Part shown: in pieces, positions 14,046 through 41,377 of the stretch
Layout of the letters: each line of letters begins with the position of its first letter
Numbering within the stretch: the first letter of the stretch is position 1
Source of the DNA: Candidatus Obscuribacteraceae bacterium
GTDB taxonomy: Bacteria; Cyanobacteriota; Vampirovibrionia; Obscuribacterales; Obscuribacteraceae
Direction: 5' to 3'
Assembly: GCA_044226015.1 (NCBI GenBank)
Contig: JBGAHS010000007.1
Location: forward strand, 288,001-352,000
Length of the DNA: 64,000 nt
The notes under the pieces: generated by a model
The model's database searches: none
What the model was told of the DNA's origin: nothing
The model's input: only the letters and a program-made list of their open reading frames with translations
Translations under genes and position numbers: made by a program

Positions 14046-14127
14046 AATTATGCAGTTCTAATACGTAATTACCACATCTGAGGACACAAGAATTTCACGA
14101 ATCGCGCTTAACTTGAACTCATTCAAG
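14046..14127 (+). promoter_or_regulatory. conserved upstream element, copy 1
   Basis: TACGTAATT-N14-CACAAGAATTTCACGAAT-N4-CTTAACTTGAACTCAT, closely matching 16397-16461. Confidence 0.6.
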
Positions 14128-14500: not shown

Positions 14501-14690
14501 AGTCCGTCCACCCCAATTCTGTATCTTTCAAGCGTTCGATGTCGGTTTTTCGATCCACCTGAATAGTCCGTCCACCCCCATGTTCGAACCATTCTAATAG
14601 TCCGTCCACCCCACAACGGTCCACCCATTAGTTCGTCCACCCCCATGTTCGAACTGTCCGTTCACCCTAATGTTCGTTCTTCCACCTAAG
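14501..14690. repeat. cluster of degenerate GTCCGTCCACCCC motifs
   Basis: Copies or variants at 14502, 14566, 14600, 14619, 14631, 14656 and 14672; CCCCATGTTCGAAC occurs twice. Confidence 0.8.
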
Positions 14691-14797: not shown

Positions 14798-16204
14798 ATG
14801 ACTCACGAATTTGAAGAAAGCAAAAACGATAACACGCGCCACGCACTGGTCGATTTCCTAGATCAGAAGCCCGACTACTCGCGCTCTTTTGACCCCTATG
14901 ATATGTACAGAGGTATCCAGGCAGTTTCCCAGATAGTGGGACGCTCGGACTCTGGTCGCTCACCATCAGACCCTGCACGCATTCCCGATAATGTTGAATG
15001 CGTGGGTGGACAATGCGTAGCTCTCTCTTTGGATGATGCGGCTAAGGAGATGGCTAAGATTTCTGAATCTGCCAACAGAGTGAGTGTTACAGATCACTCG
15101 AATCTTCCAGACAATGTTGAGTGTGTCGGTAATGAATGCCGCGTTCTCAGCCCAGAAGAATTGGCGCAGGAGAAAGCGAAGCTGGCGGGATATCCAGCCG
15201 TTGAGATAACGCAGAATCCCACGCTTCCAGACAATGTCAAATGTGTAGGCAATGAGTGCCGAGAAATGTCACCGACGGAAGCTGCAGCCGAGCGAGCCAA
15301 GATGCATGCTGCGGGAAACAACTTCGAAGTTTATATGCCTAAGGGACAGATTCCAGACAATGTTGTTTGTATTGGAGGCGAATGCCGAATTCTCACTCCA
15401 GAGGAAATCGCAGACGAGAGAGCCAGGTACGAAAGTGCATCTCATGCAGCTTGCTCTTGTGTCAACTGTCACATCCCTGAAAACGTTAAGTGTATTGGAA
15501 ACGAATGTGTTCAGCTCACTCCTGAACAAGTCGCAGCCGAAAAAGCCGGTCTTCTTTCAAATGGCGATGGCAACGTACATATCTCAAGCTGTTGCAAGAT
15601 ACCTGATAATGTTGTTTGTATTGGCGGCGAGTGCAGAGTCCTAACTCCTGAGGAATTGTCGCAAGAACGTGCAAAAATGAAAGGCGCAAGTGAACATGTT
15701 TGCTCTTGCTGTCGAGTGCCAGACAATGTTGAATGCATTGGCGACCAATGCCGAGTTCTATCGCCAGAAGAAATGCAAGCAGAGAAAGAAAGGCTTCGTG
15801 CTGCTGGCGGTTCCGTCAGTATCAGTTCTTGCAAAATTCCAGATAATGTTGAGTGTGTTGGAAACGAATGTCGAGTTCTTAGCCCAGAAGAAGTTGCTGC
15901 AGAGCGCGCCAAGATTGCTGCTTCTGAAAACAAGTACAACAAAGATGCCTGTGAGACACAAACCCCATCCAACGTGGAGTGTGTCGGAGATGAGTGCCGA
16001 CCACTTTCTCCAAAAGAGGCAGTTTCCGAGCGCTTACGCTTGCGTTCCCTTGGTGGCAAAAAGGTTCAAGTAAATCATGAAGCCATTCCAGAAAATGTTG
16101 AGTGTGTAGGCAATGAGTGCTATGAGCTGACCCCTCCACAGATGGCTGCAGAGCGGGCACGAGTCCATGCTGCTAAAGAAGTCTCCTGGTGGCTGAAACT
16201 ATAG
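14798..16204 (+). CDS. Cys-rich repeat protein, ten ~41-aa repeats (P-D/E-N-V-x-C-V/I-G-x-x-C-x3-S/T-P-E-E)
   Basis: RBS GGAG before MTHEF; ten repeats counted in the translation; about 30 Cys; no signal peptide. Confidence 0.9.
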   Translation: MTHEFEESKNDNTRHALVDFLDQKPDYSRSFDPYDMYRGIQAVSQIVGRSDSGRSPSDPARIPDNVECVGGQCVALSLDDAAKEMAKISESANRVSVTDHSNLPDNVECVGNECRVLSPEELAQEKAKLAGYPAVEITQNPTLPDNVKCVGNECREMSPTEAAAERAKMHAAGNNFEVYMPKGQIPDNVVCIGGECRILTPEEIADERARYESASHAACSCVNCHIPENVKCIGNECVQLTPEQVAAEKAGLLSNGDGNVHISSCCKIPDNVVCIGGECRVLTPEELSQERAKMKGASEHVCSCCRVPDNVECIGDQCRVLSPEEMQAEKERLRAAGGSVSISSCKIPDNVECVGNECRVLSPEEVAAERAKIAASENKYNKDACETQTPSNVECVGDECRPLSPKEAVSERLRLRSLGGKKVQVNHEAIPENVECVGNECYELTPPQMAAERARVHAAKEVSWWLKL

Positions 16205-16268
16205 ATTCTATGCAAATCCGGAAAGCAGGCTGGCTGCCAGTCAAAACATATCCGGAACGCATTGAAAT

Positions 16269-16312
16269 AAGCGGAGGCAGTTGCTCCCCAGTTCTGCCTC
16301 CGCTTTTTGTTT
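16269..16312 (+). terminator. intrinsic terminator
   Basis: AAGCGGAGGCAG-N13-CTGCCTCCGCTT followed by TTTGTTT. Confidence 0.85.
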
Positions 16313-16358
16313 TCGCAGCTTTGCGTGGCATGTATGTCTATGCACTGCAAACTAAACA

Positions 16359-16461
16359 ATTACGCAGTTTAACCCCACATATTTAAGTGAAACGAGTACG
16401 TAATTCCCCCATACGTGTCACAAGAATTCCACAAATAGAACTTAACTTTAACTCATCGAAG
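16359..16461 (+). promoter_or_regulatory. conserved upstream element, copy 2
   Basis: TACGTAATT-N13-CACAAGAATTCCACAAAT-N4-CTTAACTTTAACTCAT, about 95 bp before the thioredoxin start. Confidence 0.6.
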
Positions 16462-16555
16462 GTTGATCGGTGTTCTGGGACTGTCGCTGTTGTTGAGTTG
16501 AGCTGCTTTAAGGGCTCGATTCCCGCTCTCATGCCGGCCTGGAGAAACCTAATAA

Positions 16556-17614
16556 ATGCCACCTGAAGTAGAAGAATCTCGTGCTAAGCCAACGACTCAG
16601 AGCGATGCTCCGCCGAGTTTTGATTTTTTCGGCTTTCACCAGCAAGGAAAAACAATGAGCGACAATAACGCTCTGTCTCAAAAAGATAAGCCTCAGAGTT
16701 CTATCGAAATTACTAATCCATTTTCTTTCAATCAAGGTTTAAGCAAGCAAGAGTCCGGAAGCAAGCAGAACGTTGGACGTGCTAGCGACAACGACAAAGG
16801 AGTTTCGTCCAAGCCGGCAGGAAAAGATGATGTTGGTGCATCGAAAAAGCCAGACAACATGATTTGTGTTGACGGAATTTGTCGCCCGATGACTCCGGCA
16901 GAGATGGAGAGAGAGGCGGCTAAAAGAGCAGGAAAGCATGACGCTACCTTTCCAATTCCACCGTTTGATTTTTCCAAGTATGGCACCGTTGACGGTGGCG
17001 TTAAACAAGCTGGGTATGATGCGCCAGCTGATAAGACAAGCAAACCATCTGACAGTTTAAAAGAACTGCCTAATCTCACACCACCAGGTTCTTCAACAGG
17101 CAGAAGTTCAATTATTGATGCCTATGAGCGTCGGCAAGGAGCACGCCAGGCTGGCGGAGGTGCACTTCCTTCAATAGATGCAATACCAAATAATCCTAAC
17201 CAGAACCCAGGCTCTGACCTGAAACCCTGGACACCTCCTCAAGACAGAAACAATAACAACAATGACAGCATTGACCCATCTGCGAGGGAAGTCCTTCATC
17301 TCTCCAGTAAGGAACAGCTAGATAATGAAATAAAGAACTCAAAAGTACCTGTCATTGTTGATTTTTATGCCACCTGGTGCGGTCCTTGCCAGAGGCTTGG
17401 TCCAAAGCTTGAGTCCTTAGCAAGAGACCAGGGCGGCGCCGTTAAAGTCATTAAGGTTGATGGAGATCAGTTCCCTGAGCTTGTTTCGCAGTACGGGGTT
17501 AGTGGGTACCCAACACTAGTTTCCTTCAAGAATGGTTCTGAGTCCGAAAGAACCAGTGGCGATCAGGCAACCAGCACATTGCAATCGCTTGCTAAAAGGC
17601 TTCGTAATCGTTAG
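16556..17614 (+). CDS. thioredoxin-domain protein with a long disordered N-terminus containing one Cys-pair repeat
   Basis: C-terminal VIVDFYATWCGPC...YGVSGYPTLV; N-terminal PDNMICVDGICRPMTPAE. Confidence 0.92.
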   Translation: MPPEVEESRAKPTTQSDAPPSFDFFGFHQQGKTMSDNNALSQKDKPQSSIEITNPFSFNQGLSKQESGSKQNVGRASDNDKGVSSKPAGKDDVGASKKPDNMICVDGICRPMTPAEMEREAAKRAGKHDATFPIPPFDFSKYGTVDGGVKQAGYDAPADKTSKPSDSLKELPNLTPPGSSTGRSSIIDAYERRQGARQAGGGALPSIDAIPNNPNQNPGSDLKPWTPPQDRNNNNNDSIDPSAREVLHLSSKEQLDNEIKNSKVPVIVDFYATWCGPCQRLGPKLESLARDQGGAVKVIKVDGDQFPELVSQYGVSGYPTLVSFKNGSESERTSGDQATSTLQSLAKRLRNR

Positions 17615-23959: not shown

Positions 23960-24805
23960 CTAGAGGGCGAGCATTTTATAACCATCTACTGGTGGCAGGG
24001 GCGGTCTCTCGGGAATCAGCTCGTCCATTTTATTTTGCTTCAGGTATTTATCAAATGATGCTCTGAGATCAATCAATGTAGGTTGAGAGCCAGGCACCGG
24101 CAGATATGGAGTCTCTCTGTATCCACCTTTCCGCTTAGTTTGGCTGAGAACATTGCTTTCATACCGAGCATAGCCGTTATCATCGTAAAACTTCATTGAT
24201 GCTTGAACTAGAACCTTGCCTCGGTCTATGGGGCGGTAGGTTTGAAGCGATTCTCTCTGTGTTACACTGCGAATTTTGTTCGTATTGCTGTCAACCATCA
24301 GAGTGGTTGCAAGAAATCTGATTAGCACTTCGTTTTCACTTACTATCTCAGCTTTCACATTGTGAATTATGCTTAGATTTACGAAGTTTGACTGCAAGGT
24401 TCTACCAACGTAGGGGACTGGAACGCAGGTCCAGACTGACTCAGCGCGATCCTTTTGGTAACCGATGATTTCAAGATCTGGATAATTGATGTCTACAGCA
24501 CCAAAGCCTTGTTGTACAGAACCTTCTGCATCTTTAAGGCTTAGTCTCTTCACTTTGCCTTCTGTGCGCCAGGTTCCAACCAACCATTCGGGGACTTTCC
24601 ACCAGGTTAAATAGCCTGTACCAGTAGCGGGCAGCAAGCGAGGGTCAAATATTGTTCCAGGTTTCCACTGCGGTGCCACTGGCGGCAGTGAGCCCGAATG
24701 TTCTATTTTTCCTTCCAAAATGAAAGGCTCACTAGCATTCGCTGGTATCGAATATAGTGCAAGGGTCGAGAACACTATGCTCAATCCAAAGCGAACAAAT
24801 TTCAT
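23960..24805 (-). CDS. secreted hypothetical protein
   Basis: MKFVRFGLSIVFSTLALYSIPANA signal peptide; ATGA overlap with the kinase stop. Confidence 0.75.
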   Translation of the reverse strand: MKFVRFGLSIVFSTLALYSIPANASEPFILEGKIEHSGSLPPVAPQWKPGTIFDPRLLPATGTGYLTWWKVPEWLVGTWRTEGKVKRLSLKDAEGSVQQGFGAVDINYPDLEIIGYQKDRAESVWTCVPVPYVGRTLQSNFVNLSIIHNVKAEIVSENEVLIRFLATTLMVDSNTNKIRSVTQRESLQTYRPIDRGKVLVQASMKFYDDNGYARYESNVLSQTKRKGGYRETPYLPVPGSQPTLIDLRASFDKYLKQNKMDELIPERPPLPPVDGYKMLAL

Positions 24806-26265
24806 GCCGTCTCGCTTACAGTCTTGATGCGGAACCAGAAGCAACTACCAGCGCTCTTATTGTTTTTCACGCCTATAGTTCCACCGTGACCCTCAATGAT
24901 GGCTTTGCAGATGGCCAGACCTAAACCTGTACCTTCCTTTGCTTTTTCGCTCGTTGAAGGTGCCTGGTGAAACCTTTCGAATACAAGATTCTGGTGGTCT
25001 TCGGGAATTCCAGGACCCTGGTCCATAACTTTTACCATCAAGAATCCACTTTCCGTTTGATCGAGCCCAATATTAACCTCACTGGAAGGCGGCGCAAACT
25101 TTATAGCATTTCCTAGCAGATTGATAAGAACCTGTGTCAACCTAAATTCATCCGCTTCTATCGCCACATCCTCTTCTTCAATTACAAATACATCAATCGA
25201 TTTCTTTTCGGCGAGCTGAAAAATAGCATCAATAGCGCGTTGAAGGAGTTTCTGTATATGGGTATTTTGCAACTCTAAAACCAGTGTACCTGACTCCATC
25301 TTTTCCAGGTCGAGTAAATTGTTGATGAGTTGCATCGAATGTCGCAAGCTTGTTTCCGCCATTCTAACCTTGGCTTGCCCGGTGTCGTTCAGCTGTCCCC
25401 AGGCATTAACTCCTAGAAGTTCCAGGGTGGATGTCACTGAGCTGATGGGGGTTCTCAAATCGTGGCTGATCATCGCTACGAATTGCTTTTTGATTTTCTC
25501 AAGTTCGGCTCTCTTCAGGGCTGCTTGTTCCAACGCATCTGCAGCGTCGTGGAATGTTCTGTCGATTCTTGCAATTTCATCCTGCCCTTCAAGAAGTGGC
25601 TTTAGCTCTCGCCCCTGCCCCAGTCGAACACTGTTTGCCATAAGTGCTTGCAGGCGCTTTGTTGTGCTCTGGTGAAACACAATCACCAGTAGCAGAGCAA
25701 TCCCGATGCTCATAGGTATTCCCGAGATGAGTACTAATTTCAATACATTTTTCAAGTTTTCAGCGGCTTGTGGATTTTTCCGCTGTTCACGTTTCTCGTC
25801 TTTGATAATTACGCCTAGTTCGTCAACAATATTGTCTAATCGGCGCCGCATAGTAAAAGCTTCGGTGATATTCAGTTTTTCCCCGGCTTTAGATTTTTCA
25901 GCCGCCTGTCTGATCCACACAAAAGCACTTTGTGTGTCTATAGATACGCGCCTGACTATCTCTAAGTGTTTTGGATCGTCTTTGACCATCTCTTTCAGCT
26001 TTTCCATGTTTGCTGGAGTTTTGTCGAGTAGCTCATCCAGTCGTTTCTCGAAAAATCCCAAGTTTTTTGCATCAAAAGCCAAAAAGGTAAAACTCACATC
26101 AAAAAGCAGTTGAATAGTGGAGGTAGTTCCAGCGATGATGTTTTTTGCCCGCTCTTCAGCTTTTGTCTGCACTTCTGATTCATAAAGCAACCATGCGAGA
26201 GTTCCAAGCAATGCGAGTTCAAAAGCAAGAGGAACAGCGATCAATACCAGAGCCTTTTGCATCAA
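24802..26265 (-). CDS. sensor histidine kinase (2 TM, CHASE3-like sensor, HAMP, HisKA, HATPase)
   Basis: SHDLRTP H-box; NLLGNAIKF N-box; DQGPG; FERF; GTGLGL. Confidence 0.95.
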   Translation of the reverse strand: MMQKALVLIAVPLAFELALLGTLAWLLYESEVQTKAEERAKNIIAGTTSTIQLLFDVSFTFLAFDAKNLGFFEKRLDELLDKTPANMEKLKEMVKDDPKHLEIVRRVSIDTQSAFVWIRQAAEKSKAGEKLNITEAFTMRRRLDNIVDELGVIIKDEKREQRKNPQAAENLKNVLKLVLISGIPMSIGIALLLVIVFHQSTTKRLQALMANSVRLGQGRELKPLLEGQDEIARIDRTFHDAADALEQAALKRAELEKIKKQFVAMISHDLRTPISSVTSTLELLGVNAWGQLNDTGQAKVRMAETSLRHSMQLINNLLDLEKMESGTLVLELQNTHIQKLLQRAIDAIFQLAEKKSIDVFVIEEEDVAIEADEFRLTQVLINLLGNAIKFAPPSSEVNIGLDQTESGFLMVKVMDQGPGIPEDHQNLVFERFHQAPSTSEKAKEGTGLGLAICKAIIEGHGGTIGVKNNKSAGSCFWFRIKTVSETA

Positions 26266-26403
26266 AGAGAGGTGAATTCGTTTTTTCGCGCTAATGAGCT
26301 ATACCTCTGTAAGGTGGGACAGATTTCCGTGATTGCTGGTAAACTACAACTCGGCTTATTGTAAGCGCTTTAAATCCCCAATACTTTATATCCCATAAAA
26401 CTT

Positions 26404-27084
26404 ATGGCAAAGATTCTAGTCGTCGACGACAACATCGACCTCGCTGACAACGTTAAGACATGGCTTCAGATGGAGCAACATACTGTCGATGTATGCAACG
26501 ACGGGCTGGCTGGTCTCGAGTATCTTCGCACCTATCAATATGATGTGATCATTTTAGACTGGGCGATGCCGAAAATGACTGGTATTGAGGTGCTTAAGCA
26601 GTATCGCTCGTTGAAAGGTGTTACTCCCGTTTTGATGCTGACCGGTAGGCGTAGCATCGACGACAAAGAGGAAGGACTCGATGCCGGAGCCGATGACTAC
26701 CTGACAAAACCATTTGAAATGCGCGAAGTGTCTGCACGTGTCAGAGCATTGCTCCGTCGTCCGCAAGCTCAGCCTAGCAATACTTTGACAGTCGCCAACG
26801 TCACTCTGGACAAAGAGATTCGTAAAGTCAGCAAAAATGGCAGCGAATTGAGGCTAATGCCCAAAGATTTTGCAATTCTTGAACTCTTAATGACCTATCC
26901 GAACAAGGTGTTTTCGGCGGAGAGCTTGATAGAGCGAATCTGGTCCAGCGATACTGATGCGTCCCCCGAGGTAGTGCGCAAGCACATTAATAGAATTCGG
27001 ACTCAAATCGACACAGAAGGCAAGCCCTCGCTGATACGCACAGTTCATGGCGTTGGCTATGCTCTTGAACCTCCCCAATCCTAG
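26404..27084 (+). CDS. OmpR/PhoB-family response regulator
   Basis: LVVDD, DVIILDWAMP, GADDYLTKPF; winged helix ending IRTVHGVGY. Confidence 0.96.
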   Translation: MAKILVVDDNIDLADNVKTWLQMEQHTVDVCNDGLAGLEYLRTYQYDVIILDWAMPKMTGIEVLKQYRSLKGVTPVLMLTGRRSIDDKEEGLDAGADDYLTKPFEMREVSARVRALLRRPQAQPSNTLTVANVTLDKEIRKVSKNGSELRLMPKDFAILELLMTYPNKVFSAESLIERIWSSDTDASPEVVRKHINRIRTQIDTEGKPSLIRTVHGVGYALEPPQS

Positions 27085-27675: not shown

Positions 27676-27688
27676 TTGCTGAGCCAGT

Positions 27689-27821
27689 TTTCATAGCTCC
27701 CGCTTTCATTGAACCACCAGTTTTATGGCTCCAGCTTATCTCCAGCGTTAGTAGCTCCAGCTTTTATAGATCCTGCTTTCATAGCTCCGCCTTTTTTATC
27801 TCCAGCTTTCATCGCTCCGGC
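27689..27821. repeat. degenerate 15-bp tandem repeat (minus strand GCTGGAGCTATGAAA-like)
   Basis: TCC at 27741, 27756, 27771, 27786, 27801 and 27816 (exact 15-bp period), plus 27698 and 27730. Confidence 0.85.
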
Positions 27822-27838
27822 TGAGGCAGCTATTCGAA

Positions 27839-37450: not shown

Positions 37451-40400
37451 TTATTTGTACCGTGCTGGATAGGGGATGCTGTAGAAGTTCTGTTGTGGAG
37501 CATTCTTTCTCCACAACTCTTCCCAGCTTGAGCTGTTCTTTTGATCTCTTTGCTTTTCTCTAGCCAACTGTGCGTTGGTGCGAGGATGCAGGTAGCGTTC
37601 CATGCCTACTAGCAAACCAAGCTGAACCTTACCGACCTCATAAGGGTCTAAGGCTTTCTGCTGGTCACCAGCTTTTGTGGTTAGAAGTTCGTTTAGAATC
37701 ATATTTCCTTGACGTACAACATTTTGTACACCGCTTCCTTGCTCGCGAAGTGGTTTGGCATGTATTCCGGCCACTTCTCCCTTGCCAGAGTTAACCAGTG
37801 CCCCTAATTTGTGGCTCTGTGAACTTACTAGCGTCAGTGTGCCGGTCGACATCGGACCATTGTAATCATCCATGTGGTTTGAAATGATTACATCTGCCTT
37901 TGTATCTTTCAATGCGTGAGCCAGTCCGACCATGCCCTGTGCTGAGGGGTTGGTTCGGTAGAGTTCATCTTGATTTACGTGTATTGGAACGCCTCCAGCG
38001 TACTCCACCATCGACGCCAGAATTGCACTACTTTGTTTGTTGAAGTCGTACTCTCGCATACCATTTTTGTTTTGCTCAGTCTTAGACCAGTCTGGTGCGG
38101 AGAAACCAGGAGTTCTTGAGCCATGGAATGGGTCATGCCCTCCGTTTATTGCAATTCGCTTGCCTTCCAGTGCACCACGTCCGGTGCCTCCACTAGCCAA
38201 GTCAGGGTTTGCTGCCATCACGGCTGCTGCCGCTGCTTTTGAAGCAAATCTATGTTGCAAAAGCTGTTGCGCCATAGGGTGGCTTGCATCATCGATGATT
38301 CTCTGTTGTAGATTTGCTTTTTCATCGGACAGTCGAGTATGCAATTGGGCGCGCTCTAGGGCTCTAGCCTCTTGCATCTTGTAATAACGTTCGGCTGTTT
38401 TCACATTCTCCGTGAGCTTTTCTGTTTGTGTGCCAAATGGATTGTAGGAGAAATCATTTATTGCATCTGAGTTCAGTTTATAGGCATTGCGATTATATCT
38501 AGCAAGATTTAAGTCTCGTGAAATGTCTGCAGGAAGTCCTTTCAATAGTCTCTCCGGAATATCTGTTGCTGGGGTGCCTTTGCGAAGTAGGGATTCAATG
38601 CGTTGCAATTGCTGCTTCTCTTGCTCGATACTCTTCTTTTCAGCTGTGGCGTCCTTCAGTGTTTTATCAATTATTGCCTGCGCATCTGATGAACGAGTTC
38701 CATCAGCTGAAGGCTTTACGCGTTGAGCGAGATCGAAGTACTTAGCTGCATCCTGAGTCAGATTCTGTTTGATTTTTCCAAGTTCAGCTTCGCTTCGCTC
38801 GGTTCTTCGATAACCGAAGTTGTCGTCAGGTTTAGGTATGTATGCTTTGTCTTTGATCTCTCGACCTTCACGAACTTCATTTGCTCTCTCAAGAACATCT
38901 TTTTGTGAGGCGATTGACTTTATTTTGTCCTCTACCTCTTGTTTGAACGAGGGCAAATCTTTTGATTTCGTTTTGTCATTGAGTGCAATTGCGTCGAGCC
39001 TAAAGTTGCCTTTGTTTGGCTCTATTCCAAGTGCAGCAGCTGCTGCTGGGTTAAGACCAATGTCCTCTTTTGTGATCTTACCGTTTGGTAGTTGACCTGC
39101 AACAAATGGAACGCCTTTTATGTTTCCGTCGTTGTCTCGTCCTACCAGAACGCCCATTGTACCCGGTGTCATACCTGGCACTACTGCGACTGGCGTGTCT
39201 TTTGCAAGACCTGCAGGTGCTTTCACTTCAGTGTTATTTAGAACTCTGGCGCCGTTGATATAACGAGCACCATATTTTTTTGCATCTTCTGCTAAGCGAA
39301 TGATGTTTACGTTCTGGTCTAGTGAACCTGGTTGAAGCTTAGGCATCTCCTGGTCTTCATCCGGGTTCGATTGTGGCTCGGGTAGCTCTTTCTTCTGCTC
39401 CTGGTTTGGAGCTTCGGGAGTTGGATCTTTCTTCTGCTCCTGGTTTGGGGCTTCTGGAGTTGGGTCTTTCTTCTGCTCCTGGTTTGGAGCTTCGGGCGTT
39501 GGATCTTTCTTCTGCTCCTGGTTTGGGGCTTCGGGAGTTGGGTCTTTCTTCTGCTCCTGGTTTGGAGCTTCGGGAGTTGGGTCTTTCTTCTGCTCCTGGT
39601 TTGGAGCTTCTGGAGTTGGGTCTTTCTTCTGCTCCTGGTTTGGAGCTTCGGGAGCTGGGTCTTTCTTCTGCTCCTGGTTTGGAGCTTCTGGAGCTGGGTC
39701 TTTCTTCTGCTCCTGGTTTTGGGCTTCGCCTTTTGGAGGCACTTTTTCTCCGGTGAATGCGTACGGATCATCTCCGGGCTTGAATCCGTCAACCGGTGCC
39801 GGTTTTACATCTGGACTTGCTTCTCTAGGCGCATCTTTAGGTCTATTGTTTTGAGAGTTATCGATAGGTTTAGTGTCAACTTTCGGTTCGGGCTGGCGGG
39901 GTTCTGGTGTTATTGCGGCTTTGAATTTAGTGTTAAATTCCTCTTTGAGCTTCTCAGTCTGAGCTTTGCTTAAATGGCTTCCAAACCGGCGATTGCCAAT
40001 ATTATCAACGAATGTTTTTAGCTCCTTCTCGTTTCTTGGAGCCAAAATATCGTCTTTGCTAAGCGTATTTATTGGGCGACCTTGTTCCTTGCGTAGAGCG
40101 CGGGCTCCAGCTACTAGCCCTCTTATCTCATTATGATTGAGCTCTCTTCCCATAAGTTCTGAACTCATATTTGACAGAGTTTGGTAGTACCCATCTCCTT
40201 TTTCGGGGCGAGAATTCTCCAATAGTTTCTCTGACATTTTGAAAGTTCCGTCAGATGGTTTTTCAGGTTGAACAGGCTGAGCAGGTTGTTCCTTCTGCTC
40301 AGGTTGAGCTGGCTGATCTTTCTTCTCAGGCTGAGCAGGTTGTTCCTTCTGCTCAGGTTGAGCAGGCTGATCTTTCTTCTCAGGCTGAGCAGGTTGTTCC

Positions 40401-41377
40401 TTCTTCTCAGGCTGAGCAGGCTGATCTTTCTTCTCAGGCTGAGCAGGCTGATCTTTCTTCTCGGGTTCGATGGCGTCGTCTTTTTTCGGCTTGTTATCTG
40501 CGGACTTAGCCCGTTCATCCTTTGTTTCTTCATCCCATTTTCGAACTCTGTCAGCTACATTTTGAATGTAGCGAGATTCTTTGTTTGCGCCGTCACCGTT
40601 CGGTGCGTAGTAACAAATTTCCTGATTTAAGCTTTTGACACCGAGTCCGCCATTCTCTCTATCTTTCCCGTATACATCACGCATGTGGTAGGACCATGCA
40701 AGAATGCCATCTTTCCAGTTGTCGAACTTTCTGAAAATGTTCTTTTGTTGACCTGAATTTGCCTTTTCGTTTGCCATCGCATCATGGTCTTTCATGTTTC
40801 CGATGCTATGGTTTTGTGGACCGTGTCCTGCTTTTCCGAGACTAGACTCTTCATAAAAATGAGCCAGCGCGTATGCAGCATTCACCCCAGTTTCTTTTGC
40901 GGCATCCATGAAATCTTTTGCCATGCTGACTGGTAGCTGTCTGTTTGCAGGTCTATCGCCTTGCGAATTTGCCCAGTTGATGAGCTTCTCTATTCTTGCC
41001 TGAGTGATGGTAGATTCTCCGAACATATGTGGCACGTTTTTGCCAAAAACATATCCGCTGTCTTTCTGTGCATCACATTTTGGTCGAGCATAATCCGCAC
41101 CGCGGATAGTGGCAAGGAGGTCTGGGCGTGAATCATTCTTCCCTCCCCGACCAGAATTATCTTCCAGAGTGAGCTTGCCCACTTTATTGTCAGTTGCTAG
41201 TTGTGAACTTTCTCGCGCACTGTTGTCTGCACGGTTTCTTCCCAGGTCTGCTCCTGTCTGCGACTTTGTGTCGTCAAGCAGCCGCCGAGAGGAGTTTTCA
41301 ACGTTTCCAGGCTCTGATGCTTCGTGTTTCTTTTCTGTGCGCTCAGCTTTGTTCGTGCTAGGTGTATCACCTGACAT
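37451..41377 (-). CDS. large multi-domain peptidoglycan hydrolase: glucosaminidase/lysozyme-like domain, repeat linkers and C-terminal Amidase_3-like domain
   Basis: DAAKETGVNAAYALAHFYEESSLG...FRKFDNWKDGI; LEGKRIAINGGH...REYDFN...ADVIISNHMD...ILNE; RBS GGAGG. Confidence 0.8.
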   Translation of the reverse strand: MSGDTPSTNKAERTEKKHEASEPGNVENSSRRLLDDTKSQTGADLGRNRADNSARESSQLATDNKVGKLTLEDNSGRGGKNDSRPDLLATIRGADYARPKCDAQKDSGYVFGKNVPHMFGESTITQARIEKLINWANSQGDRPANRQLPVSMAKDFMDAAKETGVNAAYALAHFYEESSLGKAGHGPQNHSIGNMKDHDAMANEKANSGQQKNIFRKFDNWKDGILAWSYHMRDVYGKDRENGGLGVKSLNQEICYYAPNGDGANKESRYIQNVADRVRKWDEETKDERAKSADNKPKKDDAIEPEKKDQPAQPEKKDQPAQPEKKEQPAQPEKKDQPAQPEQKEQPAQPEKKDQPAQPEQKEQPAQPVQPEKPSDGTFKMSEKLLENSRPEKGDGYYQTLSNMSSELMGRELNHNEIRGLVAGARALRKEQGRPINTLSKDDILAPRNEKELKTFVDNIGNRRFGSHLSKAQTEKLKEEFNTKFKAAITPEPRQPEPKVDTKPIDNSQNNRPKDAPREASPDVKPAPVDGFKPGDDPYAFTGEKVPPKGEAQNQEQKKDPAPEAPNQEQKKDPAPEAPNQEQKKDPTPEAPNQEQKKDPTPEAPNQEQKKDPTPEAPNQEQKKDPTPEAPNQEQKKDPTPEAPNQEQKKDPTPEAPNQEQKKELPEPQSNPDEDQEMPKLQPGSLDQNVNIIRLAEDAKKYGARYINGARVLNNTEVKAPAGLAKDTPVAVVPGMTPGTMGVLVGRDNDGNIKGVPFVAGQLPNGKITKEDIGLNPAAAAALGIEPNKGNFRLDAIALNDKTKSKDLPSFKQEVEDKIKSIASQKDVLERANEVREGREIKDKAYIPKPDDNFGYRRTERSEAELGKIKQNLTQDAAKYFDLAQRVKPSADGTRSSDAQAIIDKTLKDATAEKKSIEQEKQQLQRIESLLRKGTPATDIPERLLKGLPADISRDLNLARYNRNAYKLNSDAINDFSYNPFGTQTEKLTENVKTAERYYKMQEARALERAQLHTRLSDEKANLQQRIIDDASHPMAQQLLQHRFASKAAAAAVMAANPDLASGGTGRGALEGKRIAINGGHDPFHGSRTPGFSAPDWSKTEQNKNGMREYDFNKQSSAILASMVEYAGGVPIHVNQDELYRTNPSAQGMVGLAHALKDTKADVIISNHMDDYNGPMSTGTLTLVSSQSHKLGALVNSGKGEVAGIHAKPLREQGSGVQNVVRQGNMILNELLTTKAGDQQKALDPYEVGKVQLGLLVGMERYLHPRTNAQLAREKQRDQKNSSSWEELWRKNAPQQNFYSIPYPARYK
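39388..39728 (-). repeat. 39-bp coding tandem repeat x9 (PEAPNQEQKKDPT)
   Basis: TTCTGCTCCTGGTTT every 39 bp from 39393 to 39705. Confidence 0.97.
40274..40468 (-). repeat. 27-bp coding tandem repeat x7 (QPEKKDQPA)
   Basis: Seven near-identical units in DNA and translation. Confidence 0.95.

Follow-up and report, generated by a model that had tools for sequence, protein, structure and literature searches.

The DNA analysed here, a stretch of 64,000 nucleotides from a Candidatus Obscuribacteraceae genome (hereafter the window), encodes two neighbouring proteins with a short Cys-X4-Cys hairpin-helix unit in common: that of gene 1, in which ten units follow one another, and that of gene 2, in which one unit precedes a thioredoxin domain. 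The repeat protein encoded by gene 1 is real, undescribed and restricted to one genus; in it, an element of a known kind forms a free-standing polymer. The features of gene 1 are as follows:

14798..16204, + strand: gene 1, a 468-aa acidic protein with ten Cys-X4-Cys hairpin-helix units and without a catalytic domain
14798..14944, + strand: gene 1 leader, homologous by hhalign to that of the thioredoxin gene
14981..16168, + strand: array of ten units, PDNVxCxGxxC-x2-L[ST]PEE-helix, with variable linkers, several with extra Cys/His
16178..16201, + strand: C-terminal Trp-Trp motif, kept in most repeat proteins

Translation of gene 1 begins at the ATG at 14798, which is preceded by GGAG. The units start at residues 62, 103, 143, 185, 226, 268, 307, 347, 389 and 430 with a period of 39-42 aa, bearing out the original prediction, made from the sequence alone, of ten units of about 41 aa. 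Both Cys of the unit are invariant (14/14 aligned units). The protein contains 30 Cys in all (10 of them in linkers) and 10 His, with a net charge of -26. Linker Cys form clusters (CxCxxCH, CC and CSCC); extra Cys number up to 18 in P0003 and 16 in P0004, and are scarce in some repeat proteins, that of genome G006 having only 2 (with 8 units) and P0006 having 4. Pairwise comparison of the gene 1 units (45 pairs) gave a mean proportion of synonymous differences (pS) of 0.75, a mean proportion of nonsynonymous differences (pN) of 0.30 and a mean DNA identity of 59%; the units are old, synonymously saturated and conserved as protein. They were not detected by Tandem Repeats Finder. A profile of the 11 units of both genes, searched against the six-frame translation of the 8.2-Mb genome, recovered the same 11 copies only (next open reading frame (ORF) at E 0.55), and the other Cys-X4-Cys windows of the genome (n=1,059) scored at most 8.4 bits.

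No family of Pfam or NCBIfam matched gene 1 above its cut-off (WCX and FANCL_d3 fell below theirs), the best match of the unit profile among sequences of solved structure had an E value of 0.25, and the ESM Atlas gave no usable feature match with either gene 1 or an algal tail. Together with the fold searches below, this agrees with the earlier view that the repeat lies outside described families. In the main texts, mostly open-access, that were searched, no description of the repeat family or of a function of the tail was found; a mention of the tail of nucleoredoxin NRX1 may exist. No RNA data set for the locus was found among sequencing-run records. The absence of a Sec signal from both proteins was likewise confirmed, with maximal 19-residue Kyte-Doolittle (KD) hydropathy of 0.71 for gene 1 and 0.64 for gene 2 and no membrane stretch.

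AlphaFold2 modelling of gene 1 (9 sequences) gave a mean predicted local distance difference test (pLDDT) score of 66 and a predicted template modelling (pTM) score of 0.29. All ten units were modelled as a hairpin with a two-residue turn followed by a helix, the linkers and leader being of low confidence. Each unit is predicted to fold independently, with its two Cys opposed across the hairpin as judged from the strand register; cross-strand disulfides are often redox-active. Foldseek returned no match at E<=0.001 and VIA a best Z of 3.4, the units being too small for a good test; the lack of a match is not a sign of a new fold. Prediction of a complex between the thioredoxin domain and one unit gave a median of 0.27 against a mark of 0.32.

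Gene 2 lies downstream on the same strand and comprises the following:

16556..17614, + strand: gene 2, a protein of 352 aa in which a long N-terminal region of low complexity precedes a thioredoxin domain at the C-terminus
16556..16759, + strand: leader of gene 2, with DFFGFHQ and NPFSFNQG motifs
16847..16933, + strand: single Cys-X4-Cys unit, nearest in form to nucleoredoxin tails
17096..17209, + strand: YERRQGAR...LPxIDAIP motif, conserved across the six orthologs and without a second copy in the genome
17303..17593, + strand: thioredoxin domain (PF00085) of canonical TrxA type, with WCGPC at 17375-17389

The predicted single copy of the unit on the adjacent WCGPC thioredoxin was thereby located to residues 98-126. 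The common motif had been given as CxGxxC; this holds for gene 1, whereas the copy on gene 2 reads C-V-D-G-I-C, so that what the two have in common is Cys-X4-Cys. The unit of gene 2 lies 145 aa N-terminal to the thioredoxin domain, in low-complexity sequence whose composition suggests a flexible or disordered region. The domain (aa 250-346) matches Pfam Thioredoxin (PF00085) with an E value of 1.7e-26 and 92.7 bits against a cut-off of 23.5, indicating a thioredoxin fold; its score with the thioredoxin equivalog TIGR01068 was 91.3 bits, under the cut-off of 96.8. Gene 2 shares WCGPC with TrxA (PF00085, TIGR01068) and adds to it a 240-aa N-terminal extension. With a single domain and 18 bits for Thioredoxin_8 (under the cut-off of 27), it is not of the nucleoredoxin NRX1 type, and DSBA had no match at E<=1 in either protein, which sets both apart from the FrnE subfamily.

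When the unit profile was searched against 1.84 billion representative sequences, 15 matches were obtained: five repeat proteins, five thioredoxin-type relatives (one a fragment), four partial matches and one algal nucleoredoxin. P0012, P0014, P0016 and P0018 were discarded as repeats of an unrelated kind, since they are similar to no more than a part of the unit. The algal match is the N-terminus of a nucleoredoxin-like protein of Edaphochlamys debaryana (P0015, E 6e-5) with two strong Thioredoxin_8 domains; in a Pfam scan of this protein no family covered the tail. Among the best 120 of 3,266 homologs of P0015, the tail is N-terminal in 15 (P0072 was left out of this count) and at the extreme C-terminus in 38. 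Of the proteins with N-terminal tails (P0015, P0023-P0045), all ten that have a named species come from volvocine or related green algae; those with C-terminal tails (P0035-P0139) come, where a species is named, from seed plants. A profile built from bacterial units only scored 29-42 bits on five algal tails, as against at most 8.4 bits for the 1,059 background windows of this genome, and 16 of 22 residues are identical in the best bacterial/algal pair. A mixed profile, which includes the five algal tails and is circular for those, gave 26 matches: four repeat proteins, six bacterial orthologs, eleven nucleoredoxins and five others. The others were two small thioredoxins (P0144 and P0146) that each bear a pair of units in tandem at the C-terminus, a fragment, a protein without a Pfam match and a chance match. 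Two tandem tail copies are also found at the C-terminus of a thioredoxin on a viral contig (L138:2980-3621), a relative of P0144 and P0146. Another viral match (L139) was set aside as chance, since the gene in which it falls is phage capsid-like and has only one Cys. P0147, a protein of 139 aa without a Pfam match, has the same tail; we take it to resemble the N-terminal region of animal UBXN4.

Outside the repeat proteins, the unit thus occurs almost only on thioredoxin-fold proteins, and it appears to be a mobile tail of such proteins. In nucleoredoxins of the NRX1 type the tail reads KPxxVxCxGxVCR, is followed in chlorophytes by a TPEE helix and is joined by a flexible linker to thioredoxin folds, as here; unlike in gene 1, it is present there in one copy per protein, while gene 1 has ten and no thioredoxin domain. 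The match between bacterial units and nucleoredoxin tails spans 22-28 residues, too short for a tree, and may reflect either transfer from algae or convergence. The flanking domains differ in thioredoxin subtype: nucleoredoxins are multi-domain proteins with WCPPC, whereas the bacterial thioredoxin is a single-domain protein of TrxA type or Thioredoxin_7-like. Because the bacterial catalytic domains are not of nucleoredoxin type, a transfer from algae, if any, could have involved only the tail fragment.

The first 50-70 residues of both proteins are homologous even with the unit excluded (profile-profile hhalign 97.6%, E 5e-12). Leader and first unit are colinear between gene 1 and gene 2, and the DNA upstream of both genes, containing a promoter-like element, is homologous as well. 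The homology of leader, first unit and promoter element shows that gene 1 arose as a partial copy of the thioredoxin gene, taking in its promoter and 5' half; the unit was then expanded and the catalytic domain lost. Gene 2 is taken as the parent from its wider distribution. The unit that the two proteins have in common is therefore evidence of descent and in itself none of interaction.

The catalytic part of the thioredoxin gene has a different history. The domain of gene 2 has 47% identity with the TrxA-like protein of its own genome and only 25-37%, in partial alignments, with the domains of five orthologs (L009, L010, L011, L012 and L018), which share 44-72% identity among themselves; six orthologs carry another thioredoxin subtype at the same place. 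In a tree of 22 domains, in which long branches are present, a single clade of the nine fused domains was rejected (approximately unbiased test, p-AU 0.003); a single origin of the three canonical-domain fusions had a p-AU of 0.30. This indicates that the thioredoxin domain has been exchanged beneath a conserved N-terminal region. Because both domain types keep WCxxC, this suggests that dithiol activity, rather than a particular surface, was retained.

The intergenic and upstream DNA contains four further features:

14062..14114, + strand: promoter-like element 5' of gene 1, with a TACGT box, a GGACAC-N5-TTTCAC direct repeat (11-bp period), a 10-bp spacer and TAACTT (-10-like)
14502..14668, + strand: five GTCCGTCCACCCC-like direct repeats between the promoter-like element and the start codon of gene 1
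16269..16313, + strand: GC hairpin with a U tract after it, resembling a terminator, between gene 1 and gene 2
16397..16448, + strand: promoter-like element 5' of gene 2, with TACGT, TGTCAC-N5-TTCCAC, N10 and TAACTT

A promoter matrix built only from nine sites of relatives, the window's own sites being excluded, ranked the two sites of the window first (gene 2, 39.1 bits) and second (gene 1, 29.6 bits) in 8.2 Mb, and no site in shuffled sequence exceeded 22 bits. The direct repeat with 11-bp period, followed exactly 10 bp on by TAN3T, precedes 11/11 genes (six thioredoxin and five repeat genes), with a TACGT-like box ahead of it in ten of the eleven; the spacing also holds at 3/3 further sites in the genome, found with a matrix that covers these columns. 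The same spacing of repeat and TAN3T is described for PhoB-activated promoters in the portion of PMC1906773 drawn on here, and the promoter-like element has the architecture of a sigma-70 promoter activated by a PhoB/OmpR-type regulator. A plain sigma-70 scan found no site, and a sigma-54 reading was set aside, PF04552 (RpoN) not being found in the 92%-complete genome. The hairpin between the genes (-24.4 kcal/mol, z -4.5, 0/200 shuffles) is not listed by a simple terminator scan with a loop limit of 8. These features indicate that gene 1 and gene 2 are likely co-regulated yet transcribed separately. The GTCCGTCCACCCC-like repeats (5 matches against 0.41 expected) lie in a leader region of 700 bp and were not seen upstream of the relatives' genes, where this region is much shorter.

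Further copies of the promoter element (G000:C11:499638, C11:502267 and C11:1031327; L112 and L113) precede large (716-1318 aa) acidic proteins without signal peptides. These three proteins have RHS-like repeats, one with a sub-cutoff RHS match, and the sites may constitute a small regulon. A histidine kinase and an OmpR-family response regulator are encoded divergently at 24802-27084 of the window, 7-9 kb downstream.

The unit was found in 5/104 genomes of the family, all of one genus (this genome and 4/7 others); in their source records the relatives bear the label Candidatus Obscuribacterales. Of the eight genomes of the genus, six have the N-terminal part of the thioredoxin gene at one and the same position next to dnaE; it was not found in G001 or G005 (91% and 70% complete). 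The repeat gene is present in four of these six, and all four genomes with a repeat gene have the thioredoxin gene, the two adjoining one another in G000; the genomes are kin and as such not independent tests of co-occurrence. Its conserved neighbours are dnaE and ruvA. Unsplit repeat genes have 5-10 units and encode proteins of 337-468 aa, about 50% identical across genomes, with promoter element and C-terminus conserved. Profile searches of the genome contigs were dominated by ordinary thioredoxins; three metagenome matches (L109-L111, E 4e-4) look like chance, of which L109 alone was checked, in one frame. The expected co-occurrence stands in one direction only: the repeat gene always accompanies the thioredoxin (4/4 genomes), whereas the thioredoxin occurs without it in G003 and G004. 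The proposal of a dedicated, obligate two-component pair was not supported, as the thioredoxin is alone in 2/6 genomes, a hairpin and a second promoter element separate the genes, and duplication explains the sharing of the unit. The repeat gene is accessory and likely co-regulated, the thioredoxin is able to stand alone and there is no obligate partnership.

Concerning function, the gene 1 product is tentatively proposed, with slightly less than even confidence and by analogy, to be a cytoplasmic multivalent reservoir of dithiols and disulfides that exchanges electrons with thioredoxin active sites. Two systems provide the analogy. According to the available part of PMC8945050, the CXXXXC tail of FrnE, a member of the DsbA family in Deinococcus radiodurans, contacts the active site of another molecule and forms a mixed disulfide; it is needed for full activity driven by thioredoxin reductase and is proposed to regenerate the enzyme. 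The C-terminal CX4C tail of class I/II ribonucleotide reductase (RNR) exchanges disulfides with a redoxin pair, as stated in an excerpt of PMC11067019. FrnE resembles gene 2 in having a flexible Cys-X4-Cys tail on a thioredoxin-fold enzyme, and differs in its DsbA fold, its single C-terminal tail and the lack of a sequence match to the unit; the text of PMC8945050 on which this comparison draws describes no free-standing polymer. The RNR tail serves an active site within the same protein, while gene 1 lacks a catalytic domain and shows no match to it in sequence. The unit of gene 2 is, like the arms of FrnE and RNR, a Cys-X4-Cys linked to a thiol oxidoreductase, and would by analogy take part in similar exchange.

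In the proposed scheme, each unit would cycle between dithiol and disulfide, so that one chain could hold up to 20 electrons. Charging would proceed from NADPH through thioredoxin reductase, a gene for which is present in the genome, and thioredoxin to the units of gene 1. Discharge would occur through thioredoxins, and gene 1 could recharge the co-regulated thioredoxin in trans, as proposed for the FrnE tail. The single unit on gene 2 would likely serve as a relay, and gene 1 as ten such relays strung together and free of an enzyme. Electrons may also flow the opposite way, from tail to thioredoxin, as proposed for FrnE; the direction, partner and trigger of exchange are those that we infer from these analogies. 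Of the earlier idea of a thiol system recharged by its cognate thioredoxin, the likeness of the unit to a thioredoxin-associated dithiol shuttle is retained and the dedicated pair is given up.

Several observations weigh against a reservoir. A WCGPC thioredoxin can normally be reduced directly by thioredoxin reductase, which makes the need for a relay questionable, and the FrnE and RNR tails, on which the analogy rests, are not matched by the unit profile. The pairing of the genes is loose: in G006 the repeat gene adjoins a thioredoxin that has lost its unit, in G002 it lies 6 kb from the thioredoxin with other genes between, G004 has no repeat gene and a single unit genome-wide, on the thioredoxin, and G003 has no repeat gene and a thioredoxin with a diverged Cys-X4-Cys only. 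In G007 (L011:8382-9397), a frame change breaks the adjoining repeat gene into overlapping reading frames of 187 and 164 aa, reflecting either a pseudogene or an assembly error, and on a metagenome contig (L108) the repeat gene beside dnaE has an unrelated gene after it, at 950 bp from the end of the contig. Furthermore, a reservoir accounts neither for the clusters of Cys in the linkers nor for the Trp-Trp end or the leader.

Among the alternatives, a role in storing or detoxifying metals (Cu, Zn, Cd) through unit and linker Cys, kept reduced by the thioredoxin, is unlikely, any metal binding being probably secondary. The Cys, His and acidic charge of gene 1 and its Cys-rich linkers, with up to 18 extra Cys among repeat proteins, would suit it, and metallothioneins and other Cys-rich metal stores have CC and CxC clusters such as occur in some of these linkers. 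Unlike metallothioneins, however, the repeat proteins are much longer (337-468 aa), have about 6% Cys and lack a Pfam match. Linker Cys are nearly absent from the repeat protein of G006, whose 8 units are accompanied by just 2 extra Cys, which weakens the metal sponge suggested earlier, and P0006 has only 4. Each unit has two Cys only, the other homes of the unit are single tails on oxidoreductases, and no conserved metal-resistance gene was seen alongside, where dnaE and ruvA are conserved instead. A multivalent decoy or scaffold, which would occupy the active sites of thioredoxin or its reductase, or cluster thioredoxins at the membrane via Trp-Trp, and so regulate rather than buffer, is less probable again. 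It would fit the conserved, amphipathic-looking Trp-Trp end, the model of ten independent beads on a string (pTM 0.29) and the binding of the tail to another molecule's active site in the FrnE crystals, as given in the relevant part of PMC8945050; strict conservation of both Cys suits exchange chemistry better than plain binding. It is very improbable that the repeat gene has little function and is only a dispensable by-product left by duplication and slippage. Its absence from G003 and G004, its split in G007 and its 5-10 units elsewhere would be expected of such a gene, but the excess of pS (0.75) over pN (0.30), the intact frame of 468 codons and the conserved promoter element and C-terminus argue otherwise. 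Least probable of all is the multi-core precursor, cut into disulfide-hairpin peptides, that was also raised in the original prediction. A leader followed by near-identical cores recalls such precursors; there is no conserved cleavage motif between the units, whose linkers vary freely in alignment, leader and unit derive from the thioredoxin gene, and no conserved protease, modifying enzyme or exporter was recognised in five loci, where neighbouring ORFs were not all family-scanned.

Export of both proteins without a signal peptide, to act outside the cell and possibly on algal prey or hosts whose tail they mimic, is held to be marginally less probable than a decoy and more so than a by-product. 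The identity with chlorophyte tails (up to 16/22), the promoter element before three large acidic signal-less proteins and the occurrence of the leader motif of DP[YF]x[YF][HN]Q type 9 times, against 0-2 in shuffles, are consistent with it, and Vampirovibrio, a relative in the same class, preys on Chlorella, according to a section of PMC4451040. Against it, none of the families FlhA, VipB, WXG100 and VirB4 was found in the genome, which is 92% complete and gave only four sub-cutoff TrbI-like matches, and the bacterial thioredoxin domains are not of nucleoredoxin type. As a genome-wide export signal, the leader gave few weak matches only; the LPxL motif is barely enriched at N-termini in the genome, and no evidence on the lifestyle of this genus was found. 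A more elaborate version, slightly more doubtful than export itself, is that the lineage captured a green-algal nucleoredoxin tail, grafted it on a thioredoxin and spun off a ten-copy, enzyme-free 'disulfide capacitor', deployed with a signal-less regulon against or alongside algae. If true, such a capacitor would drain or hijack the thioredoxin reductase (NTR)/nucleoredoxin system of the host.

Enzymes are known to carry Cys-X4-Cys shuttle tails singly, as appendages, and, if the reservoir reading is true, a protein made of tails only would be a new store of reducing power. The breadth of this is limited, as all repeat proteins found belong to a single uncultured genus. A further outcome is that nucleoredoxins of plants and algae have a conserved tail which changes position and for which Pfam has no model. 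The bacterial polymer and its single-unit parent offer a simple test system for the role of this tail, which bears on the recharging of NRX1, a stress-response enzyme of crops.

The DP[YF]x[YF][HN]Q-type motif also occurs in low-complexity N-terminal regions of several unannotated proteins of G000 (C1:666313, C1:167102, C8:110836, C9:307629, C10:571921 and C6:150129) and is possibly a lineage-specific binding or sorting motif. Elsewhere in G000 (C9; L114:583-4095), a protein of 1171 aa combines a thioredoxin-like domain with FCGNC and RHS repeats, near a sub-cutoff TrbI/VirB10-like gene. Within the window, an ORF of 1308 aa without a Pfam match (37451-41377, - strand) holds tandem arrays of 39 bp and 27/54 bp, and further tandem arrays of 43 bp and 15 bp are located at 746-1006 and 27684-27822.

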